The notes: generated by a model from the letters alone, not told the origin. Shown: positions 35,784 through 60,421, numbered from the whole stretch's first letter. The stretch: 60,421 bases of DNA, filler included, from Dugesia japonica (GCA_001938525.1; 4 parts of 4 records of this genome joined end to end with filler, not necessarily neighbours in it); one strand, 5' to 3'. Made by a program: numbers and translations.

Positions 35784-37064
35784 ATGGTTAAAGAGACTAA
35801 ATATTATGACATTCTCGGAGTTAATCCAAATGTATCAGAGCAAGAATTAAAGAAAGCTTATCGTAAGCTTGCCCTTAAATATCATCCAGACAAAAACCCA
35901 GATGCTGGGGATAAAGTATATTTATAATGATTTTATATATCAGTTTTAATTGAATTATAGTTCAAAGAAATATCACAAGCATTTGAAGTTTTAGCTGATC
36001 CCAAGAAACGTCAGATTTATGATGAAGGAGGTGAACAAGCATTGAAAGAAGGTGGAGGAGATTCAGGATTTCACAATCCTATGGATATATTTGATATGTT
36101 TTTTGGTGGTATGGGCGGAGGCCGAAATCGAGGCCCTCGAAAGGGAAAAGATGTTATTCACCAGCTAAATGTAACATTAGATGAATTGTACAAAGGGAAT
36201 ACAAGAAAATTAGCAATACAGAAAAATGTTATTTGCGATAAATGTAATGGTAGAGGTGGTAAAGAAGGTGCAGTTCAAAAATGCGGTTCTTGTAGGGGAA
36301 TGGGAGTTGAAGTTCATATTCGTCAATTGGGCCCGGGAATGGTACAACAAATGCAAACCACTTGTAGAACTTGCAAGGGTGAAAGAGAAGTTATTAATGA
36401 AAGAGATCGTTGCAAAAAATGTGAAGGGCAAAAAGTTGCGCGTGAAAAAAAAGTTCTTGAAGTTCACATTGACAAAGGTATGACTGACGGACAACAAATC
36501 AAATTTAGTGGCGAAGGAGATCAAGAACCGGGTTTAGAACCTGGAGATATTTGCATTGTTCTTGAAGAGAAACCACATAATGTATTCACTCGAAAGAAGG
36601 CGGATTTAATTTATAATATGAAATTGGATTTAATTGATTCTCTTTGTGGATTTAAACGAACAATTACTACGTTAGACAGTCGAGTATTGGTTATCGAAAC
36701 AAAACCAGGAGAAGTCATTAAAAATCTAGAATATCGCGCTATAGAGAATGAAGGAATGCCAAAGTATAAAAATCCATTTGAACGTGGAAGATTAATTATT
36801 GCATTCGATGTTGTTTTCCCTGAAAATAATTTTCTCCCTACCGACAAACTGAATAAATTACGATCGATATTACCACCTTCACAATTTTCATCACAGTTAG
36901 ACAATATGAATGAAGCCGAGGAATGTGTTCTACATCCGTACGATCCAAGTATGGCTAACAGTAAAAGTCAAGACAGATATCATGAGCGTCATCAAGTGTA
37001 TGACAGTGATGATGAAGGGGGTATGCCTGGTGGAGCTCAACGAGTCCAGTGCGCATCTAATTAA
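35784..37064 (+). CDS. DNAJA1: DnaJ/Hsp40 subfamily A co-chaperone (DNAJA1/Ydj1 type), 411 aa. Exons 35784-35915 and 35961-37064
   Basis: [13 protein letters not shown]...YHPDKNP J-domain across a 45-nt GT-AG intron, G/F region, four CxxCxG zinc motifs, C-terminal domain and CAAX box CASN. The paralogue assignment (A1/A2/A4) cannot be resolved. Confidence 0.96.
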
Positions 37065-42550: not shown

Positions 42551-43325
42551 TTTTCCCCAGTCGATCATTTTTTTTCTAACAACTTACTCAGGTGGAACCC
42601 CAACAATATGGATATTTACACTATTATGTACATCAGAATAATATTAAAAATCTAATATGATATGCTCAATAATCGTTTTGAGCATAATTAACTATTACTT
42701 TTAATTTTTATATAATTTTTTAAAGTTATCATTTTATTTACATTTTTATTGTCTAACCCTTATCATTAATATACGTCTTTAATTGATCCATGAATATCTT
42801 TATGTTTATAGTTATTTATATTATATAATATTTTATATATAATTAATATTTTTACTTAATTAATTATTTGCCATAATATAAATATTTAATTTTATTTTTT
42901 AATGATTTTCTTATTGTTTACTTCATGTAAACTAATAAAGCGCTTTTTGTTTATTCAGGGATTCGATGATTGATGGTTGTTTCTATTCATTTCATGTTCT
43001 TTATCAAATGTCAATAACTACTGAGACCACATGGTTCACTCATGTCAAACAAACTAATAATTAGTTCATTTCTCAAAAGGTATAAATAGCTGGTTTTTTT
43101 TCATTATTTTTTATTTTTATTACTCACTTTGGTTTATTACTCACATTCGTCGATTTTTGGGTAATTTTTAATTTTTTTAAATACTTCTTTATTATTATTG
43201 TTAATTTGTTTTAACTAATATTATAAATATTTTTCTTAAAATTCTACTTCGATGTTTCTTATTATAATTACTTTCGTTGGGGTTCCACCTGAGTTACCTA
43301 TCAAAAAATGGTTGGCTGGGGAAAA
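42551..43325. repeat. Inverted repeat pair (42551-42604 / 43276-43325)
   Basis: TTTTCCCCAG..CATTTTTT..ACTCAGGTGGAACCCCAAC and its reverse complement. The right arm is cut by the contig gap. Confidence 0.75.
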
Positions 43326-43426: not shown

Positions 43427-43974
43427 AAATTATTAAATGTCTTCTGTGAAATATTAAATCTAAAATGTTAAATGTTTTTATGTCAGTCACGAATATTAAA
43501 ATATTAAATATTATTGTCCGAATCCATATGAAAAATCTAAAATATTAAAATATTAAATGTTTTTATGTCAGTCACGAATATTAAATTTTAAATATTATTG
43601 TCCGAATCCATATGAAAAATCTAAAATCTAAAACTGTATTATTAAATATTTATATATAAAAATGAATCCATTATTCTGTGAAATTTGTAATAAAAGATTT
43701 TTACATCAAAATCATGCAAGAACTCATTTTAATTCTTTAAAACATAAACAAAAAGTTATTAAATTTAATTTTAAACAGTTACCTGGTGAAGAAACACTTG
43801 ATTTTGATCCTGAAATTAGAGATATTTTAAAAATTTATAGAGATCATGAAATAACTTATTTATTAAATAGTAAAGTTGAAATGAAATTAAATGTTGATGA
43901 AAATTATGAACCTGTCAGAGAAATTGATGTTTTTAAAAAAGAAATTAAACAAATTGTTACAAAATATTTTAAAT
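43427..43974 (+). repeat. Left TIR of the Polinton (contains a ~85-bp tandem repeat and the first 104 codons of polB)
   Basis: 43553-43974 is the reverse complement of 60000-60421 with about 3 mismatches. TAAATGTTTTTATGTCAGTCACGAATATT...CATATGAAAAATCTAAAAT occurs twice. Confidence 0.95.
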
Positions 43975-46900
43975 TTGTAAAACAAATAAATGTAAGTATG
44001 ATAGTAAAATGTAAATATTTAAAAGAAGACCGTGAAAGAGATTTAAATTCATATTCATCTAGTAAAATAATTACAATTAAANNNNNNNNNNNNNNNNNNN
44101 NNNNNNNNNNNNNNNNNNNNNNNNNNNNNNNNNNNNNNNNNNNNNNNNNNNNNNNNNNNNNNNNNNNNNNNNNNNNNNNTATTATTGATTACACTTTATA
44201 TTTAAATAAATATAAATCAAAAGCTGGTGCAACATATTACAAATTACCATTTACAAAACAAGGTGTTATTAATATTGAAAATAAAGATAATAAATGTTTT
44301 TTATATTCAATCCTAGCACATAAATATCCAGTTGTTAATCCAACACGTGTAAATAATTACATTCCACATTTAACAGAATTAAAATCAGATTTTGAATTTC
44401 CAATGAAAATAATTGATATTCCTAAATTTGAGAAATTAAATAATTATAAAATTAATGTTTTCAGTGTCACTGCTAACAAAAAACTTGAACCACTTTACAT
44501 TTCACATCATACTAGAAATCCTAAATCTGAAGAAAATAAATGTAATCTTTTAATTTATAAAAATCATTATGTTTTATGTCGAGATTTNNNNNNNNNNNNN
44601 NNNNNNNNNNNNNNNNNNNNNNNNNNNNNNNNNNNNNNNNNNNNNNNNNNNNNNNNNNNNNNNNNNNNNNNNNNNNNNNNNNNNNNNNNNNNNNNNNNNN
44701 NNNNNNNNNNNNNNNNNNNNNNNNNNNNNNNNNNNNNNNNNNNNNNNNNNNNNNNNNNNNNNNNNNNNNNNNNNNNNNNNNNNNNNNNNNNNNNNNNNNN
44801 NNNNNNNNNNNNNNNNNNNNNNNNNNNNNNNNNNNNNNNNNNNNNNNNNNNNNNNNNNNNNNNNNNNNNNNNNNNNNNNNNNNNNNNNNNNNNNNNNNNN
44901 NNTCTAATGAAATCTGAATATTATTGTTTTACAGGTGAAAATATTTATCTAGAATTCTTTAAATTTTTAGATGACACTAATAATAAATTACAAGAGATTA
45001 AAGATAATAAGTTAATAAAAAGATATACAGGAAATGAAATATTTAATAATGAATTATGTTATTATTGTAATAAAATAATCACCGACACTCCAGTTAGAGA
45101 TCATAATCATTTTACAGGTGAATTTCGAGGTTTTTCATGTAATACTTGTAATATTAATGATTAAGTGTTAAGAATTTATTTATTCCATTTTATTTTCATA
45201 ATGCATCTGGTTATGATAATCATTTATTTTTCAAAGAATTATTATTAAAATTTCAAGGTAAAGTTAAAAAAATAATTCCACATTCTTCAGAAAATTATAT
45301 TTCATTTCAATATGAAAATATTAAATTCCTAGATTCAGCTAGATTACTTCCATTTACATCTATAGAAACTATGGGTAATTTGTTAACATCTTGCAATAAA
45401 TATCCAATATTAAAATCATTCAACCTAAAACCTAAAAAAGTAATATTTTCATATGAATATGTAAAAGGTAAAAATATCACAGAAGTCATTAATTTATTAA
45501 AATCTAACAGAATTCCAATGAAACAAGATTTTTTTAACACTCTAACTCAAAAAGAAATATCTGATCAAGAATATCAAGAATTTAAAAATGATTTTAAAGA
45601 TTTTCAAAATATGTGGAATTATCTTCTGTATTATATGAAATTAGATGTGTTAATTTTATCTGATTTCCTTGAAAATTTTAGAGTTTCATGTTTAAATAAT
45701 ATTTTAAAATTAGATCCTTGTTATTCATATTCTGTACCAGGATATTCATGGGAAACTGGAATGTTAAATGCAAATGTTAAATTAAAATATGCTAAATCTG
45801 AAACTTATGATATGTTCTTAACAATTGAATCTGGAATTAGAGGTGGATTTTCAGGTGTACTAGGTGAACGTCAAGTCTTTTCAAATAATAGTAAATTTAT
45901 TAAATATATTGATGAAAATTCATTATATGCTAGTTGCATGACAAAATCACTTCCAACAGGTGAACTTGTTAATTGTGAAGATTTAACATATCAAACTGCA
46001 ACTGAAAATATTAATTTTATTTATGAAGTTGACCTTGAATATCCAAAAGAATTACATGATAAAACTAAATATTTCCCATTATGTCCTGAAAGAATAAATA
46101 TTACAAATGACATGTTAAGTAATTACCAGTTAAGTTTTAATAAGAAAATATTAAATGATAACATTAAACTAACATTAAATCAATTCGATAAAAAAAATTA
46201 TATAGTTCTTGGATCAACTTTAGAACTTTATTTAAAACTTGGAATGAAACTTATAAAAATTCTTAAGAAAATTCAAATGAAAACATCTACATGGTTTAAA
46301 GATCATGTTCATAGATTAATTACCCTAAGAAAAGAATCTAAAATAATTAAAGATGTTTTCGGTGATTATATTTATAAATTAATGTTAAATGCTTTCTATG
46401 GAAAAACACTAGAAAATATTAGAAATCGTTGTAATATTGAAATTTTTGATACTGACAAAGCATATCAAAGATTTGCATTTAAAGTTAATTTTAAATCATC
46501 TAAAATTTTCACTTTAAATGATTCAAATGAAGCCACAGTTGCTGCAATTAATATGATAAAGAATAAATTAAAATATAATAAATTTCCATATATTGGATTC
46601 ACAATTCTAGAATATGCTAAAGAAGTAATGTATGATTTTATTTATAATCAAATGCAACCTTTAATATCCCAAGATAACTATAAAATTCATTATACTGACA
46701 GTGTTACATTTGACACTCCAATATTACTAAGAAAAGATAATAAAATAATAATTAAAAAGATATCTGAGATCTGTAATAATTATATAAAAAACATTTATGA
46801 TGACAAATATTATTCTTATCCTGAAAATTATGAAATTTGGACTAAAAGTGGATTCATTAAATTAAAAAAAGTAATTAAAAATAAAACAAATAAAAAGATT

Positions 46901-47773
46901 TATAGAATAAGAACTAAATTAGGAATTGTTGATGTAACAGAAGATCATTCATTATTAAATNNNNNNNNNNNNNNNNNNNNNNNNNNNNNNNNNNNNNNTG
47001 AAACTAAATTATTACACAATAAATTTAAAACATTAATATCTTTAAATAATAAATTTACATGTGACATTTTAAATAAAACAATTCAAGATAAAATATCTTT
47101 ATCTAAAGCTTATTATTTAGGAACATCTTTAGGAATGAATTTAATTGATACAGAAGATTTTAAAATTCAAGAAGTAAAATCAGAAATTGAAACTAATCTA
47201 CAAACCGTAAGATTTTTAAGAGAAAATCTAGAAGATGTATATGATATTGAAACTGAAGATGGAACATTTAATTGTGGATTTCCATTGATAATAAAAAATA
47301 CCGATTGTATCTTTGTTGAAATAAAACATAAAGATAATCTTTTAAAATTAGAAAGTTTACTTGGTGATAATTTATTTCAAATGAAAGATGAAAAACCTAA
47401 TTGTGAAATATTACAAGGTAATTTTATAAAATCAAAATCTTATGCTTATTCTTACACTGAAACCCATAAAGCAGGTTTCGATTCTAGAAATAAAGGTGTT
47501 AAGAAAAATAATAAATTATTAATGGATGATTTTGATTTAATATTAAAAGATTCAAATAAAATATTTTATGGGACAAATTATACTTTAAAATCAGATTGTC
47601 ATGAAATTGAATTAATAAGTCAAAAGAAAATTGTATTAATTGCATTTGATGATAAAAGAATCATTGAAGATAATGCAATTATAACATGGCCACATGGAAA
47701 TCAATATCACTGTGAAAAATGCGGTATTTATCATTTTAGATTAGATTTAATAAATAAATGCCTAAATTGTTAA
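43662..47773 (+). CDS. polB: Protein-primed family B DNA polymerase with N-terminal C2H2 finger, terminal-protein region and endonuclease VII domain. Frameshift near 45160; contains an intein
   Basis: CEICNK..H..H finger; DNKCFLYSILA; VRDHNHFTGEFRGFSCNTCN (Endo VII); FHNASGYDNH and FLDS in the downstream frame before ATG 45371; IRGG; DENSLY (motif A); KLMLNAFYGK (motif B); YTD|TDC (motif C); KSY; KGV; FDDKR. Confidence 0.95.
46700..47299 (+). mobile_element. Mini-intein (~200 aa) in PolB motif C
   Basis: Block A SVTFDTPILL, block B DVTEDHSLL (TxxH), block F VYDIET, block G IIKN followed by +1 Thr. Removing it restores HYTD-TDCIFV. It contains a 38-N gap and no intact LAGLIDADG motifs. Confidence 0.93.
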
Positions 47774-47789
47774 ATAATAATATTAATAA

Positions 47790-48326
47790 ATGAGTGATAT
47801 AACTGAAGAAGAATTAGAAAGAATAGTTAATTCTAAAAAATGTAAATCAGTTAAGATCAATGGTAAAAATTATTATATTTCTAAAAAGGTTAAAGATGAA
47901 GTTAAATCCCGAAAATCCCAGTGGGACCCTAAAGAAGGTGGATTTGCATTTTTAGCTGCAATACCTTGGGTAATTGGCGCTTTAGCAAGTTCAGCTGGAG
48001 TTGCATCTGGAATTGCAGGTACAGTTGCAAGTTCTAGAGATGCTATTAAAAAGAAAAAAGAATCAGAATTAATTGATATACAGAAACAAAATGAAATCCA
48101 TAAAGGCAAAGAACTTATAAAAAAATCTACTCCAGTTCCAACACCAACAACAGGATCTGGTATTTTTTTAAATCCATATCAAGGTTCAGCAATTCATAAA
48201 TATTTAAAAAATATAATTCCAAATTCAGATTTAAAACTATTAACTAAAAATTTTAAAGGTGGCATTGAAATTAGTAAAAATGGAAATGACATNTATTTAA
48301 ATCCTTATAAAAAGGATGAATTGTGA
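47790..48326 (+). CDS. pX-like core/membrane-active protein
   Basis: GGFAFLAAIPWVIGALASSAGVASGIAG resembles the adenoviral pX/Polinton hydrophobic segment. It has possible adenain sites (EGG|F, GSG|I, KGG|I) and a repeated LNPY. Confidence 0.7.
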   Translation: MSDITEEELERIVNSKKCKSVKINGKNYYISKKVKDEVKSRKSQWDPKEGGFAFLAAIPWVIGALASSAGVASGIAGTVASSRDAIKKKKESELIDIQKQNEIHKGKELIKKSTPVPTPTTGSGIFLNPYQGSAIHKYLKNIIPNSDLKLLTKNFKGGIEISKNGNDXYLNPYKKDEL

Positions 48327-50067: not shown

Positions 50068-50500
50068 ATGAGTGAAGAAGATTATAATTTATTAGATTTT
50101 ATAAAAACATTTGGAACTCAAACAACAACAAATTTTGATTTATATTCAATTGCTGACTTTTTAGATTTACCTTTAGAGATTTATATGAAAAATGAAATAC
50201 CTGATATATTATCTGGAAATATTATATTTAATTATCAAAATTCAAATCAAAAGGGAACACATTGGACATGTTACAAGAATATATATTATTTTGATTCTTT
50301 TGGTTTAAAACCTTTAGATGAAATCGCGGAGCATACTAAAGTTTATAATGAAATTCAAGTGCAACATATTGGAACTAAAATATGTGGAATTTTATGTATT
50401 TATTTTTTTATATAAACTCGGAGAACAAAAATTTGAAAATATTATATCTGAAATGTTAGATCTTTATAATTCAATATTAGAAAAGAAGGAAGATGAATAA
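50068..50500 (+). CDS. Adenain-like cysteine protease (frameshift in T-run near 50405)
   Basis: GTHWTC, YFDSFG and QVQ....ICGILCIYF carry the catalytic H/D/Q/C. The C-terminus continues in the 50318-50500 frame. Confidence 0.9.
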
Positions 50501-55326: not shown

Positions 55327-56095
55327 TTAGAATAAATCATCTAACAATTCATCAGTTTCCTTGTTAAGATAAAAATAATTATATTTAGTTTTCCAGTGAA
55401 GATTAACTTCATAATCATAATCTAACTTGTTATTNAAAATATTTGAAAATAATTCATAATAAACATTATTTTTATCAGTTTTATTTAATTTAAAGAAGAT
55501 GTAACAATTTTAATTATTACGTATAGAATTTTTATCTAAATCATAATATGTTTGAGAAATATATATCACATTACAATTTGAATGTCTTCCACGAGTGAAA
55601 TAACTTTTTTGAACTTGTTGATTCTTTTCATTAACAACATCATCGAAAATTATAAGATTTTTCTTGTCTTTTGAAAGTTTATCACATGAAATTATTTCAT
55701 CTGGTCGATTACTTAATATTACTTATATTTATTGTTCTAGATCTTCTAGTAACTAGTTTTTTTTCAATGAAATATTGTATAACTTGATATGGAGTAGTTA
55801 GATTGTTAGGTGTTATATTTTGTTTTTCAAATATTAAACTAATTTCTTCTTTTGACAAGCCATTTTCTAATCCAAGATATAACAATTGAATTTCAAATTG
55901 ATTAATTGTTGTAGAATAGATTATTAAATTGTCATAATCTAAAAAATCAGGAATCAATAACATTTTCATTAATAAAACATTTTTACCAGAACCTGAAGAA
56001 CCAATTATTAATAATCTAAAATTATTTGGAAGGATTTTATTATTAAATTTTGTAATATTCTTATTCCAGATAAATACACTGCTTTTTTCAGACAT
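55327..56095 (-). CDS. A32/FtsK-like packaging ATPase (frameshift near 55710)
   Basis: Walker A LIIGSSGSGKN. The downstream frame gives Walker B LIIFDD, FTRGRHSN, YISQ and IRNN, ending at TAA 55329-27. Confidence 0.93.
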
Positions 56096-56103
56096 TTATT
56101 ATC

Positions 56104-57441
56104 TTAAAATATAGTTTTTTGAAGTTCACTTGTATAAAATCTACCAAGTATCTTGCCACCATTAATATTTGAAATTCTAAATGTAAATGGTTCAGTTTTA
56201 CCATTTCCAAGTATTTTGTTAATAATATAAATTTTTTTAGACCATTTTAAAGTATAACTTTTTTCAAATAACTTTTGTTGTTTAAAAATTCTAACTCTAT
56301 CACCAATTTTAAATTTTAATTTTTCAGAGAAAGATTCTACAGGTTTAATTTCAATATTTTCAGGATTAATACTTGCATTTTTAGGTGAAATATTAATACT
56401 AGAATGTTTAGTATTATTATAATTATTAACAATTTTATCTAATAATTCTTGTGTGATATCTTGATTTCCAACGGCAGTAAAATGTTTAAAAAGCTTATTT
56501 TTAAATGTTCGGTTGAATCTTTCGATTACAACAGCTTTACCTTGATTTTCAGTAGAATAGATTTCAATATTATTTTCATTACAAAAAGATTTAAAATCTT
56601 TATTATAAAATTCTAAACCATGATCAACCCATAATTTCAATGGCATTCTAAAACTTTTATCAAGAATTTTAATAAAAGCATTTTTAACTGATTTTCCAGA
56701 TTTATCATTACAGAGTTCAATGAAAGCAAATCTTGTGCAGAGATCTATAACTGTTAATATTACTATTTTCTTGTGAAATATTAAATCTGCTGACCAAATT
56801 TCATCTTTATAATTAACAATTACTTTTAATAAATGTTTAGGTTTTCTATATTCTTAATGAAGTTCGTCTGCTAAAATATAATTTTTATCACCAATTTCTG
56901 ATAATATTTGATTTAATTTAAGTTTATTCTTTTCTTCTTTAGTTTTAATTTTTAATTTATTTTTTGATAATATTGATTTTCCTATCATAATTTTACCTTT
57001 CATAGCTAATTTTACTAGTGATCTTTGAAATTTTTCAGTTCTACTTGGATCCTTAATATTATTAAGATCATGAATTAAATTAACATCAGCAATATGACGA
57101 TCGCGTATGTTTTCAGAAATATACGCAATATCATGTTTTAATGCTGCTGCATCAATTTGATTAATTGGTTCTTCACCTGGCAATGGATTATTATCAGAAT
57201 CTAATCTAATATCTAATCTTGTTCCAGGTCCAGTGTAATTATGTTTAAATAAATGACGTTCACCTGGATATTTTTCTGTTGTAATTGGTTTTAATAATTT
57301 AGATATTACTGTTGAATTTTGAAGATCACCACCTATCCTTTTATGTTCTTTGTTGATACATAAATTTAAATGTCTAGATTTATTATTTTTTAATAATATT
57401 TTACCACAATAATCACATATAAAATTCTTTTTAGAGGACAT
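56104..57441 (-). CDS. Zinc finger-parvoviral-type PLA2-retroviral-like (rve) integrase fusion with one in-frame TAA at 56856-56854
   Basis: One continuous reading frame: CDYC..H..C, NYTGPG..D.AALKHDIAY..AD (PLA2), LADELH*EYRK, IWSAD, VID..TRFA, LWVDHGLEF, VIERFNRT (DDE), FKIGDRVRI. Confidence 0.9.
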
Positions 57442-57463: not shown

Positions 57464-58728
57464 TTAACCTTTAACATTTTCAACAATAACAACTTTACAA
57501 TTAGCAAGTTTCATTTCAACATGTTTTTCTTCAAGAATACACCAATGAANNNNNNNNNNNNNNNNNNNATCTTTATTAATTTTAATTGTAACATCAACAT
57601 TATTAACATTCATTTTATCATCATGTGCACTGATATCAAAACAGAACATTGAATATAAATTTCCAAAATCTATTAATGATAATTCAGGTTCAATAAAAAA
57701 TTATAACAACAATTTACATAATTTAAATATGGCTGTGCCATTTCATTATTTGACATGTTAAATTTACATTCATTTGCAGGATAATTTGTATTATTTAATT
57801 GAAGTTGTATTCCTTTTAAATAAGAATGTTTTGTTTCAGCAACTGCTGGTGTTATTGAAGTTTTTTGAATAAATAAATTATCATTAGTTTGAAATGAAGA
57901 ATCTGATTTTTTAAAACAAATTAATATAAATCTAGGTTGATATGCTAAACTTGCAATTTTAATTGAATAAAATCCACCAGTTTCTAAATTAGTTTTACCG
58001 GTTATTCTGTTCAAATATGAAACTTTAATTGGTTTATTTGTAGATATTCTATCCAACATTAATATTTCAGATTGAGGTAATAATCTAACTTCTGGAATAT
58101 GAAATTCTAATGTTTCTAATGAAAAACTAGCTTTTGTTGCCGCTTCACCAAAAAATAATAATTTATCTTCAATCTGACGATTACATCTAAGTTCTATACT
58201 TGTATTATATAAATATCTATTATAATTTTGCATAAATCCAAATAAATTTTTTAATGGAAAGTAACCTTCAAATTTTTCTTTTTTATATAATTTTTTCCTG
58301 GTATCATAACCAGTATTATTAAAATCTCCAGCATCAACATCTGGAATCCAACCTGATAATTGTCCATATTCTTTTTTAGTTGTTTCAGTTGAAAATATAA
58401 AATTTAACATNNNNNNNNNNNNNNNNNNNNNNNNNNNNNNNNNNNNNNNNNNNNNNNNNNNNNNNNNNNNNNNNNNNNNNNNNNNNNNNNNNNNNNNNNN
58501 NNNNNNNNNNNNNNNNNNNNNNNNNNNNNNNNCTTCTGTTATAATTTTAAATCTAAAATATAATAATGAATTGCAAATATCTAATGGATTTGTAGATTGT
58601 AAACTTTGAAATACAATATCACCAGATGCATTTAATTTGCTTAATGTTCCAGCTGAAGGTGAAATTACTAATGTATCATTTTTAATTGCTACATGTTGAA
58701 ATTGAATATTATTATCTAAATCCGTCAT
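57464..58728 (-). CDS. Major capsid protein (double jelly-roll, hexon/PY); frameshift near 57695
   Basis: PLKNLFGF..Y, LRCNR, HIPEVRL, PRFILICF, LNNTNYP, Y..Y..F, then MFCFDISAH in the next frame. Confidence 0.85.
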
Positions 58729-59994: not shown

Positions 59995-60312
59995 TTAATA
60001 TTTAAAATATTTTGTAACAATTTGTTTAATTTCTTTTTTAAAAACATCAATTTCTCTGACAGGTTCATATATTTCATCAACATTTAATTTCATTTTAACT
60101 TTACTATTTAATAAATAAGTTATTTCATGATCTCTATAAATTTTTAAAATATCTCTAATTTCAGGATCAAAATCAAGTGTTTCTTCACCAGGTAACTGTT
60201 TAAAATTAAATTTAATAACTTTTTGTTTATGTTTTAAAGAATTAAAATGAGTTCTTGCATGATTTTGATGTAAAAATCTTTTATTACAAATTTCACAGAA
60301 TAATGGATTCAT
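59995..60312 (-). CDS. Truncated copy of the PolB N-terminus (C2H2 finger) inside the right TIR
   Basis: The first 104 aa are identical to PolB except for 2 residues, followed by Tyr and a stop. Confidence 0.7.
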   Translation of the reverse strand: MNPLFCEICNKRFLHQNHARTHFNSLKHKQKVIKFNFKQLPGEETLDFDPEIRDILKIYRDHEITYLLNSKVKMKLNVDEIYEPVREIDVFKKEIKQIVTKYFKY

Positions 60313-60421
60313 TTTTATATATAAATATTTAATAATACAGTTTTAGATTTTAGATTTTTCATATGGATTCGGACAATAATATTTAAAATTTAATATTCGT
60401 GACTGACATAAAAACATTTAA
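60000..60421 (-). repeat. Right TIR of the Polinton (runs off the window)
   Basis: Reverse complement of 43553-43974. Confidence 0.95.

Follow-up and report, generated by a model that had tools for sequence, protein, structure and literature searches.

A stretch of 60,421 nt of DNA from Dugesia japonica (GCA_001938525.1, four records joined end to end with filler), hereafter the window, holds a decayed Polinton whose protein-primed DNA polymerase gene, pPolB, is interrupted by an insert within polymerase motif C. The open reading frame (ORF) at 45371-47773 carries this insert in frame, between the Y-T-D and the T-D-C of the motif. We describe here the insert, a mini-intein predicted to be self-splicing, with its relatives in other Polintons and in nucleocytoplasmic large DNA viruses (NCLDV), and weigh the routes by which it may have reached the element.

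The intein in the polymerase gene

45371..47773, + strand: pPolB gene, polymerase region (PF03175), with motif C interrupted as YTD|TDC
46700..47299, + strand: mini-intein, Pol-c allele, 200 aa (13 masked), from Ser1 to Lys-Asn and then Thr+1 (from motifs, profile and model)
46937..46948, + strand: block B TxxH (T80-E-D-H83), invariant in 57 aligned inteins
47048..47095, + strand: approximate junction of the lost LAGLIDADG endonuclease, ~150 aa fewer than in the relative P0020
47237..47299, + strand: blocks F and G (VYD..., GFPL signature, penultimate Lys, terminal Asn)

Judged on its sequence, the insert is a real class 1 Pol-c intein with intact splicing residues, and splicing is predicted. 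An N-terminal Ser, the block B TxxH, the block F Asp, the terminal Asn and a Thr at +1 are all present, T80, H83, D182 and N200 being invariant in the 57-row alignment and S1 nearly so. The penultimate His is absent and replaced by Lys199; this His is not obligatory in class 1 inteins. The resulting KN end is found in 28 of the 28 rows of the nearest NCLDV lineage and in 154 of 326 PolB Pol-c rows (a redundant set), in line with the earlier note on this DNA, made from the sequence alone, which regarded it as a family trait. That note had placed the intein at 46691-47310, where it does lie; its ends are at 46700 and 47299, the excess corresponding to the flanks YTD and TDC. The motifs that it quoted are all present (SVTFDTPI, WTKSG, KKIYRIRTKLGIVDVTEDHSLL, ETKLLH, VYDIETEDGTF and KN|T).

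The profile TIGR01445 (intein_Nterm) matches the window intein with 39.8 bits (cut-off 24.5, E 7e-10), and the scan of the window ORFs with Pfam only gave no match to it. An AlphaFold model based on the 57-row alignment has the Hint fold, with a score of 92 in the predicted local distance difference test (pLDDT), and the 16 PDB matches listed for it at E<=0.001 are all inteins. Its top eight viral fold matches are NCLDV DNA polymerases or unnamed entries, and the viral matches include Pithovirus LCPAC302, Megavirus courdo11, Marseillevirus LCMAC201, HaV01, Klosneuvirus and Pandoravirus.

A LAGLIDADG EN1 or EN3 motif was detected in each of the 28 other complete pPolB inteins and neither of them in the window intein, where the last endonuclease helix, at the junction listed above, is the sole endonuclease remnant. 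The intact endonuclease of a full (homing) intein is therefore lacking here; the earlier note mentions neither this deletion nor the upstream break in the polymerase gene. The G + C content of the intein (0.20) is similar to that of the exteins (0.22-0.23). A Hedgehog-type Hint domain was discarded, as the insert sits inside a polymerase motif and every listed match to which a label could be given is an intein of PolB, pPolB or topoisomerase II. An assembly artefact was likewise set aside, since contigs with intein flanks and with the empty site recur across four DNA-type runs.

Relatives, phylogenetic position and signs of homing

The search with the window intein retrieved 731 proteins at E<=1e-3, of which the best 120 are described. 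The first, P0020, is a pPolB with a LAGLIDADG intein (E 6e-40), the next NCLDV PolB standing at 1.4e-23; other pPolB-type carriers among these 120 include P0021, P0022, P0029, P0035, P0037, P0050 and P0068, and the remaining matches are mostly PolB or topoisomerase II. A scan of 1.84 billion representatives gave 1299 matches, 135 of the best 150 being new; BLAST against a small set of labelled sequences identified no pPolB among these 135, although by eye the fragment P0400 resembles one. A single pPolB locus (L081) was found among the 80 kept from a metagenome scan, and viral contigs scanned with P0020 and with P0377, an RNA-primed PolB described below, yielded no relatives. Ten loci came from the scan of prokaryote genomes; three of them are classical archaeal PolB inteins and another lies in a probably T4-like polymerase, so labelled from its gene context, and these served as outgroups. 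Complete inteins were extracted by pattern (405, redundant). Rows were called "NCLDV-type" on the strength of motifs, BLAST and their place in an extein tree that included named anchors, genome context being used for only part of the rows.

Over the Hint domain, identity to the window intein reaches 72% for P0020 and 50-60% for the PolB inteins of Imitervirales IM_01, which have a G-F-P-L-type C-terminal signature (GFP signature). The Bodo saltans virus intein is 34% identical over 99% of the query, and a weak match to Nanoarchaeum NEQ068 was also obtained. Trees, searches and viral fold matches place the window intein in the giant-virus Pol-c family, which bears out the likeness to giant-virus PolB inteins pointed out in the earlier note. 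Hedgehog, phage and classical archaeal origins, which the same note had named as alternatives, were rejected: these sequences are 34-38% alike on the Hint columns and form the outgroup.

Two side observations concern the distribution of the family. Type II topoisomerases carry the same family at a D|T-D-G site in 33 rows, among them L016, L024, L025, L059, P0040, P0103 and P0117; here the intein has jumped, non-allelically, to another D-[TS]-D motif of similar sequence. PolB genes in a Promethearchaeota/Asgard metagenome-assembled genome (MAG; L162:4010-5017) and in the MAG of an uncultured archaeon (L161) carry NCLDV-type Pol-c inteins, that of L097 being identical to that of L161. Their Hint identity to the window is 49-50%, versus 34-35% for the classical archaeal inteins, and they nest among NCLDV-type inteins; the neighbouring genes look archaeal by eye, and a limited literature search gave no clear report of such a case. 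The intein-bearing, NCLDV-like PolB genes of Patescibacteria and Bacteroidales MAGs (L163, L164 and L165) are probably mis-binned giant-virus DNA.

The Hint-only tree (95 rows and 144 columns, after removal of seven mis-cut or other-site rows and dereplication) joins the window with P0020 (100/95) and gathers ten pPolB rows plus P0377 (98/92) inside a 38-row clade sharing the GFP signature (97/95). Full-length trees were built from 54 rows, in which the pPolB clade (100/99) groups with the NCLDV GFP lineage (92/98), and from 50 rows and 334 columns with P0377 left out, in which the Polinton clade (100/99), with the window and P0020 together (100/99), is sister to the NCLDV GFP-signature lineage (87/86). 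In the full-length trees the Polinton clade lies several nodes within NCLDV-type inteins, and in every tree the nearest kin of the window intein are Polinton inteins. Three fragments (P0009, P0017 and P0400) join the group of the window and P0020 (98/99), and the flanks of two of them suggest, by eye, a third type of pPolB.

In the extein tree, 28 of 30 GFP-type hosts fall in the Imitervirales and 22 of 30 in a clade with three IM_01 genomes, so the nearest NCLDV lineage is mostly Mesomimiviridae-like instead of being Mimivirus itself. The anchor labels come from the supplement of PMC8575486, IM_01 being the Mesomimiviridae. Comparing intein and extein phylogenies, as the earlier note had advised, thus gave the nesting among NCLDV inteins and the Polinton pPolB extein that it foresaw, but with the window intein in a Polinton clade of its own. 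With an intein nested among NCLDV inteins in the best trees and a pPolB extein of Polinton type, an exchange across polymerase classes at some time is indicated, which retains that part of the homing first proposed and not the transfer from an NCLDV into the window element.

P0377 deserves a separate mention. This 716-aa PolB, encoded on a 3.5-kb Logan contig and falling outside the Imitervirales, contains a GFP-signature intein with a decayed-looking endonuclease, and could represent a bridge virus, putatively with an iridovirus-like look.

For the window and P0020, intein and extein relationships do not match. The window extein groups with the intein-free P0228 and P0229, and the extein of P0020 forms a very long branch without BLAST match to that of the window, the N-exteins being 20% identical for the 72% of the Hint domains. 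Judging from their motifs, the two exteins presumably belong to the two main groups of Polinton polymerases. More generally, Hint identities of 48-75% are found across exteins as little as 15-20% alike. Among the 120 exteins nearest to that of the window, two have the intein, 115 have an empty site and three could not be assigned.

Filled and empty alleles also occur side by side. In cluster P0037, for 15 of 136 members listed, seven are filled, six are empty and two do not cover the site, full-length exteins being 94-99.7% alike. As to the hosts of P0037, the Atlas offered leads that score below 0.9, to clusters of Arthropoda and Mollusca. All ten columns with fixed differences between filled and empty members lie between -7 and +44 of the site, and the filled flanks are closer to another family (P0050, P0174) than to the two empty siblings compared; this pattern is a co-conversion signature. 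The filled P0158 and the empty P0161 are identical over 571 of 573 and 169 of 169 positions, with two differences in 742 extein residues. In two empty members of cluster P0037 (P0192 and P0194), C-D-S replaces T-D-S after the site, and these could be endonuclease-resistant alleles. Since the relatives keep the LAGLIDADG endonuclease, filled and empty alleles coexist and a co-conversion tract is present, the intein family likely homes among Polintons, with presumed cutting by the endonuclease.

The Polinton and its copies in the host

43553..43974: left terminal inverted repeat, at least this long, with 99% complementarity to the right arm
43662..45164, + strand: upstream pPolB part (C2H2 finger, Endonuclease VII domain), ending in a stop
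55709..56095, - strand: A32-like packaging ATPase fragment (Pox_A32 E 0.00085, under the curated cut-off)
56104..56646, - strand: retroviral-type integrase fragment (rve_3 E 0.0027, under the curated cut-off)
56854..57441, - strand: parvovirus-like phospholipase A2 domain protein (PLA2X-like, E 1.6e-9)
57673..58728, - strand: double jelly-roll major capsid protein (PF21738, E 1.3e-14), short here
60000..60421: right terminal inverted repeat, cut at the window end

With pPolB, an integrase, a packaging ATPase, a double jelly-roll capsid protein and long terminal inverted repeats (422 nt, 99%), the element is a Polinton/Maverick of about 17 kb. It is decayed: the capsid, integrase and ATPase ORFs are short, and the pPolB gene is broken in the window copy, given a stop at 45162-45164 and a continuation of the reading in another frame from ~45170. 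Among the 21 window ORFs submitted to the library scan, no profile match was found for a cysteine protease or a minor capsid protein, nor any NCLDV gene. The ORF at 50068-50415 (+), also without library match, has motifs that suggest a possible adenain-like protease. PLA2-like genes are typical of animal adintoviruses according to PMC8502044.

Subterminal repeats extend to 43433, and the true left end lies near masked bases. The first 105 codons of the polymerase gene fall within the terminal inverted repeat (43662-43974 on the + strand and 59995-60312 on the - strand); the repeat spans the polymerase start, and a truncated copy of the N-terminus is therefore present at the right end of the Polinton. 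A Cys-rich tail (C-x2-C ... C-x2-C, 47700-47773), possibly a zinc finger, ends the polymerase ORF past the usual C-terminus. The left flank is eukaryotic DNA, rich in AT and in repeats, in which pieces of retrotransposons and a DnaJ gene are found. Immediately to the left of the Polinton, two 33-nt inverted arms with 671 nt between them (42572-43308) probably delimit a small non-autonomous DNA transposon. The host DnaJ gene (DNAJA-type, 35961-37064) is a long single exon with a CAAX-like end, and its product is ~69% identical to DNAJA2 and ~50% to yeast MAS5/Ydj1, as counted by eye over ~100 shared residues. The eukaryotic flank, this DnaJ gene and the PLA2-like gene make an animal host very likely.

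Parts of the stretch were found in 14 listed sequencing runs, 13 of them from one organism, with no RNA run on the list. In three DNA-type runs, the region 45000-47800 is represented by ~19,000 contigs per run, mostly 80-95% alike, this depth not being read as a copy number. A joint at 46695-47298 that removes a net 600 nt occurs in four of four runs, and variants inside the intein were found in dozens of host DNA contigs, one of them in up to 89 contigs. These contigs therefore reveal a large and diverged Polinton family in the host, with both filled and exactly empty sites. For RNA, about a quarter of each of two raw runs yielded nothing beyond partial, poly-A-like matches at 46856-46896 and some diverged reads over the flanks, which speaks neither for nor against expression.

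Origin of the Polinton inteins and comparison with known systems

Our preferred explanation, to which we give a probability of about 0.7, combines a predicted self-splicing mini-intein, a Polinton-wide intein clade, one old exchange with a giant virus, homing between Polintons and loss of the endonuclease in the window lineage. After translation, Ser1, the TxxH of block B, the Asp of block F and the terminal Asn, all of them observed, would excise the intein and ligate YTD to TDC, which would restore motif C and the active site of the polymerase. In full-length relatives, the LAGLIDADG endonuclease may act on further Polinton copies within the nucleus by cutting their DTD site where it is empty, and repair would then copy the intein and some flanking sequence into the cut site. 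The family would go back to a single old exchange, the other party being a large DNA virus that was Imitervirales-like or served as a bridge, followed by spread within Polintons that included at least one crossing between deeply different pPolB lineages, those of the window and P0020. The window lineage subsequently lost its endonuclease, the intein now being passively carried in part of a large, decaying host Polinton family.

From the trees and the approximately unbiased (AU) tests, the Polinton intein clade and its link to NCLDV inteins are firm on the sequences at hand, and the direction from NCLDV to Polintons is likely but not proven. Several results weigh against this explanation. Bootstraps are unsettled in all three trees. 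A position of the Polinton inteins outside all NCLDV-type inteins was not rejected (AU p=0.32 with 50 rows, p=0.63 in a smaller set), and in the smaller set the tree held to this Polinton-basal position was 7.5 log-likelihood units above the quick free tree. Grouping of the window with Polintons of similar extein, to the exclusion of P0020, was rejected in the 50-row set (p=0.027) and stands in the smaller and Hint-only tests (p=0.38 and p=0.39); of the Polinton-only clade congruent with pPolB that the earlier note had set against its own idea, the clade was thus recovered, and the congruence rejected in the largest test only. Among the other Polinton carriers, intein identity roughly tracks extein identity, and therefore long vertical descent with losses also occurs. 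P0377 lies inside the Polinton clade in the Hint-only tree and outside it in full-length trees, so more than one exchange is possible. Lastly, the DNA around the site agrees with that of the nearest NCLDV lineage at only 10-13 of 18 nt across 19 loci, a gap that homing would cross with difficulty; for sites so distant, PMC549080 argues for bridging through a series of transfers.

The earlier note held that the intein homed from a nucleocytovirus into the window element, both sharing one cell, and saw in this a fit with a virophage-like or helper-dependent life cycle. We consider this reading very unlikely, also with a recent ancestor of the element as recipient. Family and site are indeed those of NCLDV Pol-c inteins, the KN end and the GFP signature are common to the window and the Imitervirales lineage, and a grouping of the window with the NCLDV GFP inteins, excluding other Polintons, stands in the two smaller or Hint-only tests (p=0.105 and p=0.22). 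However, this grouping was rejected in the 50-row set (p=0.037), Polinton inteins being nearest in every tree, and a recent arrival accords poorly with an intein deprived of its endonuclease, with a G + C content like that of the exteins, in a window whose scanned ORFs include no NCLDV gene. Moreover, haptophytes are the hosts of those viruses of the nearest lineage that are named and in culture (PMC8575486). That the intein is instead ancient in Polintons or in a common ancestor of Polintons and NCLDV, giant viruses having acquired it from Polintons or inherited it in parallel, is unlikely, even though it fits the Polinton-basal root left standing by the AU tests and the parallel identities of inteins and exteins in most Polinton carriers. 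The best trees put the Polinton clade several nodes deep among NCLDV-type inteins, NCLDV PolB and topoisomerase II hold a far greater diversity of the family, the intein is rare in pPolB (2 of 120), and the high Hint identity between exteins 15-20% alike is too high for descent from a common pPolB ancestor.

Repeated exchange, into or out of Polintons, through a non-Imitervirales large DNA virus infecting Polinton hosts appears improbable as well. P0377 would be a candidate for such a virus, with its GFP signature, its extein outside the Imitervirales and its place inside the Polinton clade in the Hint-only tree (96/83), and GFP-type inteins occur in two of the 30 non-Imitervirales PolBs tested. 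Yet it is a single sequence on a short contig, has a long branch, leaves the Polinton clade in full-length trees and found no relatives in viral contigs, its iridovirus-like look being only presumed.

Under the preferred explanation, a cell shared by a Polinton and a giant virus is needed once, at the base of the clade, and this could have been a protist. The data require no more than one such cell in the distant past, which implies no helper dependence of the window Polinton, and none of the results supports a helper-dependent life cycle. The wider proposition of a live family of true inteins in animal nuclear genomes, made of giant-virus-derived Pol-c inteins that invaded Polintons once and home across the deepest polymerase split, has in our judgement slightly better than even chances.

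The gene content of the window Polinton (pPolB, integrase, ATPase, capsid protein and PLA2-like gene, with terminal inverted repeats) is that of animal Polintons/Mavericks, or adintoviruses (PMC8502044). The word "intein" is absent from the main text of that paper and from those of Jeong et al. (10.1101/2023.08.22.554363) and 10.64898/2026.10.13.758929, and no report of Polinton inteins was found in the literature searched, whose coverage left out Repbase reports, most subscription papers and the supplements of Polinton papers. According to a review (PMC8529194), metazoan genomes have no inteins, and a survey covering eukaryotes (PMC5784728) lists inteins of viruses from NCLDV families and unclassified viruses only. 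The Polinton family would add a new host class for inteins, the protein-primed polymerases, and would likely place many copies of an intein in the chromosomes of animals. Since single Polinton families comprise both filled and empty alleles, with a co-conversion tract, homing in a eukaryotic nucleus becomes open to direct testing. That the intein jumped between pPolBs only 20% alike shows that Polintons without close kinship come together and recombine, and the link with Imitervirales inteins marks a past encounter of Polintons with giant viruses which dates to the clade base and is silent on present helper dependence.

Polinton pPolB is also known to contain insertions of HNH and VSR nucleases (Jeong et al. 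2023; Krupovic et al. 2024), selfish-looking like the window insert, and Krupovic et al. (PMC11071308) suggested that they "result from intein invasions". In the consulted text of these papers they are nuclease domains with no splicing domain described, whereas the window insert is a true Hint intein, placed in the catalytic motif, with LAGLIDADG endonucleases in its relatives. Virus-derived inteins in eukaryotic chromosomes were likewise described in viral-type PolB on nuclear scaffolds of algae and a labyrinthulomycete and in Anaeramoeba (PMC10710043), but these eukaryotes are not animals and the inteins sit in DNA polymerases of viral type or in genes of the host, the words "polinton" and "animal" being absent from that paper. 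The closest known systems are the Mimivirus PolB intein (Ogata et al. 2005, PMC549080) and related NCLDV PolB inteins (those of Bodo saltans virus P0002, HaV01, Megavirus and Pithovirus LCPAC302 were compared), which share with the window intein the motif C site, Ser1, the terminal Asn, Thr+1 and the Hint fold; the Mimivirus-type insertion site YGD|TDS, cited in the earlier note, is confirmed by PMC549080. These inteins sit in RNA-primed PolB, whereas that of the window sits in a protein-primed Polinton polymerase, has the GFP signature of an Imitervirales lineage where the Bodo saltans virus intein has an AGIG-type C-terminus, and is deleted for the endonuclease. The PolB inteins of Imitervirales IM_01 (Mesomimiviridae; e.g. 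L001-L003) have both the GFP signature and the KN end in common with the window, and constitute the sister or enclosing lineage of the Polinton inteins, which form a separate and well-supported clade.

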